A DNA stretch of 2,113 nucleotides from Escherichia coli (lineage in GTDB: Bacteria; Pseudomonadota; Gammaproteobacteria; Enterobacterales; Enterobacteriaceae), in NCBI RefSeq assembly GCF_013315695.1, contig NZ_CP054361.1; one strand, written 5' to 3'. Positions 621-1,960 of this stretch are shown in pieces (position 1 is the first letter of the stretch; the number at the start of each line of letters is the position of its first letter). Both the position numbers and the translations under genes were made by a program. The notes beneath the pieces were generated by a model. The model had not been told where the DNA came from. It saw only the letters and a list, made by a program, of their open reading frames with translations, and ran no database searches.

Positions 621-801
621 GGTGATCGGGTGTGTGGAAAAGGTTGGGGTAAGCCGTTCGGGGGTGCTTGTTTTGGGGGGTTAAAATTGTGGTTATTTTT
701 TGCGCAATTCTCGCGCGTGATCCTTGTATTTATACTTAAGGGATAAATGGCGGATATGAAATAGTGGTTTAGCCCAGTAATGACGAGGCTTTGAGTGGGT
801 T

Positions 802-830
802 TTGACAGGTCAAAGAAAATGGAGCAGAAT
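802..830 (+). promoter_or_regulatory. Candidate sigma70-type promoter: TTGACA (802-807) - 17 bp - CAGAAT (825-830)
   Basis: Perfect -35 hexamer embedded in the palindrome TTTGACAGGTCAAA (801-814). The -10 match is only 4/6 but keeps the conserved A2 and T6. It would place the 850-877 hairpin in the rep leader. By-eye prediction only. Confidence 0.2.
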
Positions 831-849
831 TGAGGCGTTTTTAATCGGC

Positions 850-877
850 GTTGGGGAGTGCGTCAACACTCCCCAAC
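850..877. repeat. 11-bp perfect inverted repeat (GTTGGGGAGTG / CACTCCCCAAC) with 6-nt loop CGTCAA; candidate origin or operator hairpin
   Basis: 850-860 is the exact reverse complement of 867-877. The stem is GC-rich and lies about 120 bp upstream of the rep start. No T-run follows it on either strand, so it is not a typical intrinsic terminator. Confidence 0.85.
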
Positions 878-886
878 ATTTCGAAT

Positions 887-917
887 GTGTCACCTCAGCG
901 GCAAACTCTGGTGACAT
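887..917. repeat. 7-bp inverted repeat (TGTCACC 888-894 / GGTGACA 910-916) carrying a CCTCAGC core copy in its left arm and spacer
   Basis: Arms are exact reverse complements, separated by 15 nt. TCACCTCAGC at 890-899 matches the reverse complement of 141-150 and shares CCTCAGC with the tandem array. Confidence 0.6.
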
Positions 918-982
918 GTACTGGCTCGCAATGCACAGGTACGTGATGAATATACCACATCAAATCACAGCCTGCCCAGATC

Positions 983-986
983 GGAG
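983..986 (+). promoter_or_regulatory. Shine-Dalgarno sequence (GGAG) for rep
   Basis: GGAG at 983-986 with an 8-nt spacer (987-994) before the rep ATG at 995. Confidence 0.6.
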
Positions 987-994
987 CAGGCTTA

Positions 995-1960
995 ATGTCA
1001 GAAGATAAATTCCTTTCGGACTACAGCCCCCGTGATGCAGTTTGGGATACCCAGCGCACGCTTACCGATTCTGTCGGGGGTATCTACCAGACTGCTGCTG
1101 AATTCGAGCGCTATGCACTCCGTATGGCCTCCTGTAGCGGTTTGTTACGTTTTGGTTGGTCTACCATCATGGAAACCGGAGAAACGCGCCTACGGCTTCG
1201 TAGTGCGCAATTTTGCCGTGTCCGTCATTGCCCTGTCTGCCAGTGGAGAAGAACCCTCATGTGGCAAGCCCGTTTTTATCAGGCTCTACCGAAAATCGTT
1301 GTGGATTACCCGTCTTCCCGATGGTTGTTTCTGACGTTAACTGTCAGGAACTGCGAGATAGGTGAACTTGGAACAGTCCTTACAGCAATGAATGCGGCGT
1401 TTAAGCGAATGGAAAAGCGAAAGGAGCTATCACCTGTTCAGGGGTGGATCAGGGCTACGGAGGTGACGCGAGGTAAGGATGGCAGCGCACATCCGCATTT
1501 TCACTGTCTGCTGATGGTGCAACCTTCTTGGTTTAAAGGGAAGAACTACGTTAAGCACGAACGTTGGGTAGAACTCTGGCGCGATTGCTTGCGGGTGAAC
1601 TATGAGCCGAATATCGATATTCGGGCAGTAAAAACTAAGACAGGTGAGGTTGTGGCCAACGTTGCCGAGCAACTGCAAAGCGCGGTTGCTGAAACGCTGA
1701 AATACTCCGTTAAACCGGAAGATATGGCAAACGATCCTGAGTGGTTTCTTGAGCTGACGCGGCAGCTTCACAAGCGCCGTTTTATCTCGACCGGTGGGGC
1801 GCTAAAAAACGTCCTCCAGTTGGATCGAGAAACCAATGAGGATCTTGTCATTGCCGACGATGTAGGGGATGGCACTGATGACGGGAAGCGGACGGCGTTT
1901 GTCTGGGATTCAGGTAAACGGCGTTACAAACGCGCCCCTGAGAAGGATAAATCGGATTAA
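995..1960 (+). CDS. rep: Rolling-circle replication initiator protein, Rep_1 (pC194/pUB110) HUH endonuclease family, 321 aa
   Basis: ATG at 995 is the first start after an in-frame TGA at 944-946, with GGAG at 983-986 eight nt upstream. Translation shows CRVRHCPVC (aa 74-82, nt 1214-1240), FLTLT (aa 112-116, nt 1328-1342), HUH motif HPHFH (aa 166-170, nt 1490-1504), WVELWRD (aa 191-197) and ETLKYSVK with Glu233/Tyr237 (Tyr codon 1703-1705). Motif order and spacing match my recollection of pC194 RepA and pUB110 RepU (FLTLT, HPHFH, CPVC and KYSxK motifs). No search was run. Confidence 0.93.
   Translation: MSEDKFLSDYSPRDAVWDTQRTLTDSVGGIYQTAAEFERYALRMASCSGLLRFGWSTIMETGETRLRLRSAQFCRVRHCPVCQWRRTLMWQARFYQALPKIVVDYPSSRWLFLTLTVRNCEIGELGTVLTAMNAAFKRMEKRKELSPVQGWIRATEVTRGKDGSAHPHFHCLLMVQPSWFKGKNYVKHERWVELWRDCLRVNYEPNIDIRAVKTKTGEVVANVAEQLQSAVAETLKYSVKPEDMANDPEWFLELTRQLHKRRFISTGGALKNVLQLDRETNEDLVIADDVGDGTDDGKRTAFVWDSGKRRYKRAPEKDKSD

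Follow-up and report, generated by a model that had tools for sequence, protein, structure and literature searches.

Comparative evidence for a probable sigma-70 promoter of rep between the predicted double-strand origin and a structured leader in a Col(BS512)-type plasmid

The question raised by this locus is whether a perfect -35 hexamer upstream of rep, embedded in a near-palindrome, marks the promoter from which rep is transcribed, and whether the palindrome itself acts as an operator. The window (the whole stretch of 2,113 nucleotides that was analyzed) is a complete circular plasmid of the Col(BS512) type. PLSDB contains 701 matching records from Escherichia, Salmonella, Klebsiella and Shigella, and for 492 of these the identity is at least 99%. 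MW363524 (pC3W), which is typed as Col(BS512) and has rep as its sole annotated gene, is identical to the window, and records from Shigella sonnei with lengths of 2089 and 2101 bp reach 99–100% identity with it. Between the window and the reference plasmid pBS512_2 (2089 bp) there are six substitutions, and pBS512_2 lacks two of the copies of a 12-bp repeat; the promoter regions of the two are the same.

The rep gene (995–1960, plus strand) encodes 321 amino acids, and its product contains the Rep_1 domain PF01446 (E = 1.3e-88, 297 bits versus a cut-off of 33). The protein was aligned with RepA of pC194 over residues 47–225, through E156 and HPHFH (166–170), which pair with KLEIT and NPHFH of pC194, respectively. 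E233 and Y237 (ETLKY) have the same E-x3-Y spacing as E210 and Y214 of pC194, and lie outside the alignment, which stops at residue 225. The catalytic roles of E142, E210 and Y214 in pC194 have been described (PMC5703833). Judged from its Rep, the window plasmid is a member of the pC194/pUB110 (Rep_1) rolling-circle family.

Several other elements of the circle were recorded. A perfect 12-bp tandem repeat (GCATTATCCTCA) is present in 4.2 copies at 194–243, nested within inverted repeats at 184–198/261–275 and 124–147/331–354. Its copy number explains the 2089-bp form, pBS512_2 having two copies; the 2101-bp form presumably carries three. An AT-rich ORF of 88 amino acids lies 3′ of rep (1964–2113, continuing across the circle to 1–117) and is listed in RefSeq as a hypothetical protein. 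It matched no family in Pfam or NCBIfam, DNA-binding or other, and was rejected as a repressor on those grounds. Two strong hairpins, at 471–527 (TCGTCAAATGCTAAATCG/CGATTTAGTGATTGACGA) and at 554–597 (GGTGGATGG...CCATCCACC, then a short stem and a T-run), are found 5′ of the origin block discussed below, and both are conserved in ColpVC relatives. These are candidates for a single-strand origin and/or a terminator that shields the rep promoter.

The flagged site consists of a -35 hexamer TTGACA (802–807, plus strand) that matches the consensus at 6/6 positions and is kept in relatives, a 17-nt spacer GGTCAAAGAAAATGGAG (808–824; column counts), and a -10 hexamer CAGAAT (825–830) that scores 4/6 in the consensus scan, with A2, A4, A5 and T6 present. 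It lacks the TG of an extended -10. The hexamers, the spacer length and a 14-bp near-palindrome over the -35 had all been pointed out in the earlier note, and each is read in the sequence. From promoter geometry, that is, 6–8 nt after the -10, transcription is predicted to start at 836–838. With 10 of 12 matches this is the top site of the window in our consensus scanner, and no other plus-strand candidate between it and rep reaches 8/12. The minus strand of the palindrome reads TTGACC and has no -10 sequence 17 nt downstream, so a divergent promoter was rejected by reading the sequence. ORFs that cover the site, at 802–1008 (68 amino acids, TTG start) and 851–946, were judged to be mechanical only.

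To place these matches against chance, 2000 dinucleotide shuffles of the window were scanned. A site of at least 10/12 appeared anywhere on either strand in 30% of them, and the window contains three promoter-like sites versus 2.7 expected. On its own, the single sequence is therefore weak, suggestive evidence, and both figures would suit a functionless chance match to the promoter consensus. Against such a match, the strand and place of the site are right with respect to rep: only 1.75% of shuffles gave a rep-strand site of at least 10/12 inside an interval of 252 nt comparable to 749–1000 (P = 0.0175). It is the comparative evidence given below that raises the promoter match beyond chance. 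Searches of Rfam in E-value mode returned no family match and two weak hits that were attributed to chance, STnc310 at 799–849 (21.7 bits, the gathering threshold being 40) and mir-5736 at 540–603. In the accessible literature no description of this promoter was found, and Col(BS512) and ColpVC are mentioned there in epidemiology only.

The comparison was anchored on a conserved block upstream of the promoter. When the 450 nt 5′ of rep were aligned among nine plasmids (Rep 56–100% identical), the block ATCCTTGTATTTATACTTAAGGGATAA (719–748, plus strand) was near-invariant in the eight loci with Rep 69–100% identical to that of the window. In the most distant locus (L008, Rep 56%) it is more diverged, and the aligned position reads CTTGATA. 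Small plasmids with Rep proteins of only 53–69% identity share the core of the block (CTTGTATTTATACTTAAGGGATAA, 723–746) without change. Among GTDB species genomes, 23 contigs contain its exact 24-mer, and at least 120 metagenome contigs contain a 20-mer. The ∼2-kb contigs with the 24-mer are attributed to Acetobacter, Gluconacetobacter, Legionella, Salinivibrio, Vreelandella, Xenorhabdus, Pantoea and others. On every contig with an identified Rep_1 gene, which includes most of those from GTDB, the block precedes that gene and is co-oriented with it.

Conservation in the family and position strongly suggest that 719–748 is the double-strand origin (DSO). Positions 723–746 align with CTTATCTTGATAATAAGGGTAA of pC194, for which the pairwise score alone is non-significant (P ∼0.07), and pC194 has TCTTATCTTGATAATAAGGGTAAC upstream of its own rep, on the rep strand. 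The nick region of the window reads TTTATA where the pC194 type has TTGATA. By analogy with CTTG/ATA of pC194, nicking within the block ATCCTTGTATTTATACTTAAGGGATAAAT is predicted between T731 and A732. The flagged promoter is thus placed between origin and rep, co-oriented with the origin, with the predicted nick 71 nt upstream of it. The earlier note had overlooked the origin block, as well as the convergent promoter described below.

Origin-anchored segments (158 in total) were reduced to 78 non-redundant relatives with Rep 53–100% identical; note that these share descent and recombine, and so should not be counted as independent events. In 76% of the 78, a promoter-like site that scores 8/12 or better, with A2 and T6 of the -10 present, begins at +77 to +79 from the start of the origin block. 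The same criterion applied at other offsets (0–109) gave a mean of 0.2% and a maximum of 2.6%. In the 71 anchored non-redundant relatives, TTG is invariant at the orthologous -35 and TTGAC predominates; by clade, most have TTGAC(N) and the ColpVC clade has TTG(N)3. The spacer at the orthologous site is 16–18 nt and nearly always 17 or 18. At the -10, ∼20 distinct hexamers are used, including CAGAAT, CAAAAT, CAAGAT, GATGAT, GATAAT, GATCAT, GAAGAT, CATGAT and CATAAT, along with TATTCT, TATGAT, TATTAT, TATCTT, TACCTT and others. With TTG as the anchor, the columns of the -10 that carry information are precisely A2 (57/71), A5 (50/71) and T6 (62/71).

This turnover of the -10, in which the sigma-70 signature is kept at a fixed spacing, is what would be expected of a working promoter, and it is not predicted by a mere binding site. 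Together with positional conservation (76% versus 0.2%), the conserved -10 signature makes a functionless chance match very improbable. Plus-strand sites with a promoter score of at least 9 downstream of the flagged site occur in only 7% of family leaders. We conclude that 802–830 is very probably a sigma-70 promoter of rep, designated P_rep. The earlier proposal that a promoter here reads through the 850–877 hairpin and the inverted repeat at 888–916 into rep is supported by the conserved position, by the site being the lone candidate, and by covariation in the leader.

Distances also speak for P_rep: in 68 of the 78 relatives the -35 follows the origin block with a variation of at most 2 nt, while the conserved DYSP-like motif of the Rep N-terminus follows the origin block at 213–357 nt. 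The upstream half of the spacer, GT[C/A][A/G]AAGAAAA, is unusually conserved for a promoter spacer. The conserved TTGAC, the spacer half and the fixed distance to the nick block could partly or additionally reflect origin function (binding of Rep or HU). Taken further, TTGAC-NN-GT..AAGAAAA might be chiefly an “enhancer” of an extended DSO that is bound by Rep and/or HU, with its likeness to a promoter secondary or with both roles combined. We regard this reading as possible, if doubtful. It draws on the fixed 77–79 nt to the nick block, compared with an onward distance to the Rep N-terminal motif of 134–278 nt, and on conservation of the spacer columns just 3′ of the -35 beyond the needs of a promoter spacer. 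It is also consistent with the origin of pKYM, described (PMC4439123) as 173 bp with a RepK-binding core and a downstream enhancer bound by HU, and with pUB110, where RepU coats the dso and reaches the promoter (PMC5703833). However, the A2/A5/T6 pattern with free turnover of the -10 is unexpected of an origin-binding site, rep would be left with no other promoter candidate, and for the conserved right half of the spacer two alternatives, GTCAA and GTAGA, are found with Rep proteins that are nearly identical.

Because phasing between origin and -35 is tight despite variable leader lengths, and because the spacer is conserved, room is given to a dual role. It is tentatively proposed, as a rather unlikely case, that 795–830 is both the rep promoter and a distal DSO “enhancer” kept at a constant phase of 71 nt relative to the nick. 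If so, Rep and HU assembled at initiation would occupy the promoter and couple each replication round to shut-off of rep transcription, and GTCAAAGAAAA and GTAGAAGA, the alternative forms of the spacer, would be modules of the element that can replace each other.

With P_rep as the preferred assignment, the palindrome over its -35 was considered separately. The sequence TTTGAC-AG-GTCAAA (TTTGACAGGTCAAA, 801–814) has 6-bp arms and a 2-nt center, and 12 of its 14 positions are self-complementary. The earlier note had suggested that it could be an operator, and in an extended form this would make TTTGACAGGTCAAA the binding site of a dimeric repressor, Rep or another protein, that autoregulates rep. 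A palindrome of 6+2+6 over a given hexamer is rare (∼0.2% by chance over a few spacings, by our own estimate), and TTGAC-NN-GTCAA recurs in distant clades (L010, L012, L022, L024, L115, L121, L135 and L138, Rep 53–67% identical). The alternative TTGAC-NN-GTAGAAGA is, however, as widespread as the palindromic form. In L073, whose Rep is 99.7% identical to that of the window, TTTGACGTGTAGAAGG replaces the palindrome, so the palindrome is dispensable with this Rep; it is also absent from the nearest diverged relatives (L002, L004 and L037). The non-palindromic TTGACGTGTAGAAG is present in all four of these and in L043 and L134. In addition, promoter and leader modules recombine freely (L068, L037), the left arm is already fixed by -35 function so that covariation of the arms is untestable, and the only other ORF, of 88 amino acids, is without a family in Pfam or NCBIfam. 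The operator reading is therefore considered improbable. Sites for IHF or FNR within the palindrome were rejected by eye against the consensus sequences, as spacing and bases do not fit.

The region as a whole has a mosaic structure. When L068, L037, L073 and L113 were compared with the window (alignment A1, window 768–1009), the promoter module, the leader module and rep were found in differing combinations, which implies recombination among co-resident relatives. For example, L068 and L113 have the palindromic promoter module of the window together with diverged leaders and Rep proteins ∼91% identical. Both promoter forms coexist on contig L043, separated by 2100 bp. A AAAAACCCC...GGGGTTTTT hairpin spans the -10 at about +90 to +150 from the origin block in at least 16 of 71 relatives, all from other clades (L010, L011, L015, L022–L024, L032, L093, L103, L111, L117, L118, L135 and L149 among them), and the A-run of the spacer is the 5′ flank of this hairpin. 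The hairpin, which has been lost from the window, looks like a bidirectional terminator. Since its 5′ arm lies in the spacer, it would stop antisense or read-through transcripts and not those started at P_rep.

Unusual records were also encountered among the relatives. In L029 (Xenorhabdus stockiae, 686–709 onward) the origin block and a promoter-like site are followed by AAGAAYTTAGAA-type repeats, and tblastn detected no Rep gene after the origin block; it may represent a satellite that lacks Rep, or an element that has been rearranged. Closely matching stretches also appear in assemblies of unrelated organisms. The stretch in L031 (Streptococcus hillyeri) is identical to the window over the compared origin-to-rep region, and those in L014 and L019 (Rhodosalinus), L027 (Marinobacter) and L030 (Kineobactrum) equal the Klebsiella ColpVC plasmid L007 from origin to rep, except that L030 differs after ∼+180. 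All five are probably contamination, and for this reason claims of host range from such contigs need caution.

Leader structure was assessed with RNAalifold on thirteen distinct leaders of the Col(BS512) clade (A1). The window leader (837–1015) folds at -63 kcal/mol (z = -4.6), and compensatory changes occur in six leader pairs overall. Hairpin I (850–877, plus strand), found by RNAalifold and by folding, has an 11-bp stem from G850 to C877 and a loop CGTCAA. Pairs change on both sides at 851/876 (UA in 7, CG in 5 and AU in 1) and at 854/873 (GC in 10 and AU in 2). Hairpin II (888–916, plus strand) is formed by TGTCACC (888–894) and GGTGACA (910–916) around a variable loop. Both structures had been anticipated as a hairpin and as a CCTCAGC-containing inverted repeat, and both are real. 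The CCTCAGC within the loop of hairpin II is restricted to the window and unconserved in relatives, and its link to the 12-bp repeats at 194–243 is therefore probably incidental. A third hairpin (969–992, plus strand), with three compensatory pairs, sequesters the rep Shine-Dalgarno sequence GGAG (983–986). ColpVC relatives have a different covarying stem at the ribosome-binding site (CATCGCCC/GGGGCGGTG), in which a T-G pair works on the plus strand only.

RNAalifold also paired TTTGACA (801–807) with TGTCAGA (996–1002). This pairing was rejected as spurious because the -35 lies outside a transcript that starts at ∼837. A role for the 850–877 hairpin as terminator or attenuator was likewise rejected, as no T-run follows it on either strand. 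When L145 and L065 were compared at the equivalent of 850–877, the loop was exactly reverse-complemented (CGCTAA versus TTAGCG) and the stem unchanged; the difference is an inversion of the loop across the stem.

A second promoter-like element faces the leader from the opposite direction. On the minus strand, TGGGCA (978–973), an 18-nt spacer and the extended -10 TGgTATATT (957–949) form a candidate promoter (978–949) for an antisense RNA that would start near 942. The element is at a fixed position within each clade. Its equivalents are TGGGCG/18/TGtTATCAT in ColpVC, TTGGCA/18/TGtTAGAAT in Legionella contigs and TTGGTG/17/TGtTATGTT in Acetobacter. Scores of at least 9 were obtained for 69% of leaders on the minus strand, versus 7% on the plus strand and 13% after shuffling; for scores of at least 10 the corresponding values were 46%, 0% and 1.6%. 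In the window, no intrinsic terminator for the proposed antisense RNA was found on the minus strand between 942 and 795, and for that reason the antisense step stays conditional here. For pC194 and pUB110, antisense RNAs that arise by counter-transcription of the region of rep initiation have been described (PMC5703833), and the pattern seen here matches this. The family-wide pattern points to control by antisense RNA as the better-supported regulatory reading when set against the operator-based autoregulation of the earlier note. Autoregulation by Rep is nevertheless plausible by another route, because the RepU protein of pUB110 extends from the dso over the neighboring repU promoter and silences it (PMC5703833).

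The following order of events would fit these observations. P_rep would start a transcript near 837 with a structured leader of ∼158 nt, in which hairpins 850–877 and 888–916 are followed by the 969–992 hairpin covering the Shine-Dalgarno sequence, and rep begins at 995. Rep output would be set mainly after transcription has started, by an antisense RNA from 978–949 acting on the leader hairpins and on the hairpin at the ribosome-binding site. Rep bound at the neighboring origin may also damp P_rep, as RepU does in pUB110.

We take the window plasmid to be probably of the pKYM type (Shigella sonnei, RepK), a lead from host and size only. Like pKYM, it is a rolling-circle plasmid of ∼2.1 kb with a pUB110-like Rep that is found in Shigella, the near-identical 2089- and 2101-bp plasmids of Shigella sonnei being circumstantial support, and an enhancer “downstream” of the core would fall where P_rep lies. 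With pUB110 and pC194 it shares a Rep_1 initiator with E...HUH...E-x3-Y residues, a DSO (predicted here) upstream of rep and co-oriented with it, a rep promoter (probable here) between DSO and rep, and a convergent promoter, here a candidate, for antisense RNA in the rep initiation region. It differs from both in its Gram-negative host, in a nick block that reads TATTTATAC and not CTTGATA, in a -35 at a fixed 71 nt from the predicted nick, and in a long predicted leader (∼158 nt) with several hairpins. Systems under countertranscript control (pT181, pMV158 and pSK41; PMC5703833) resemble it in three respects: the rep leader contains a convergent promoter, the target leader forms stem-loops, and the ribosome-binding site is covered by a hairpin. 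Unlike these, the window contains neither an antisense terminator nor a T-run attenuator upstream of rep, and it has no Cop-type repressor gene.

The layout of origin, rep promoter, structured leader with convergent promoter, and rep is that of known Rep_1 plasmids, and because it is already known from pUB110 and pC194 the understanding of rolling-circle plasmids is unchanged. Only the tight phasing of origin block and -35 despite variation in leader length, and the conserved spacer, are mildly unusual here. In clinical genomes of E. coli, Shigella, Salmonella and Klebsiella, the Col(BS512) and ColpVC types rank among the most frequent small plasmids, and annotation in the records inspected is limited to rep and hypothetical-protein genes. 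For these plasmids, the probable rep promoter, the predicted origin block and the candidate convergent promoter together give a replicon map that may be used for annotation, for copy-number engineering and in the design of plasmid curing.
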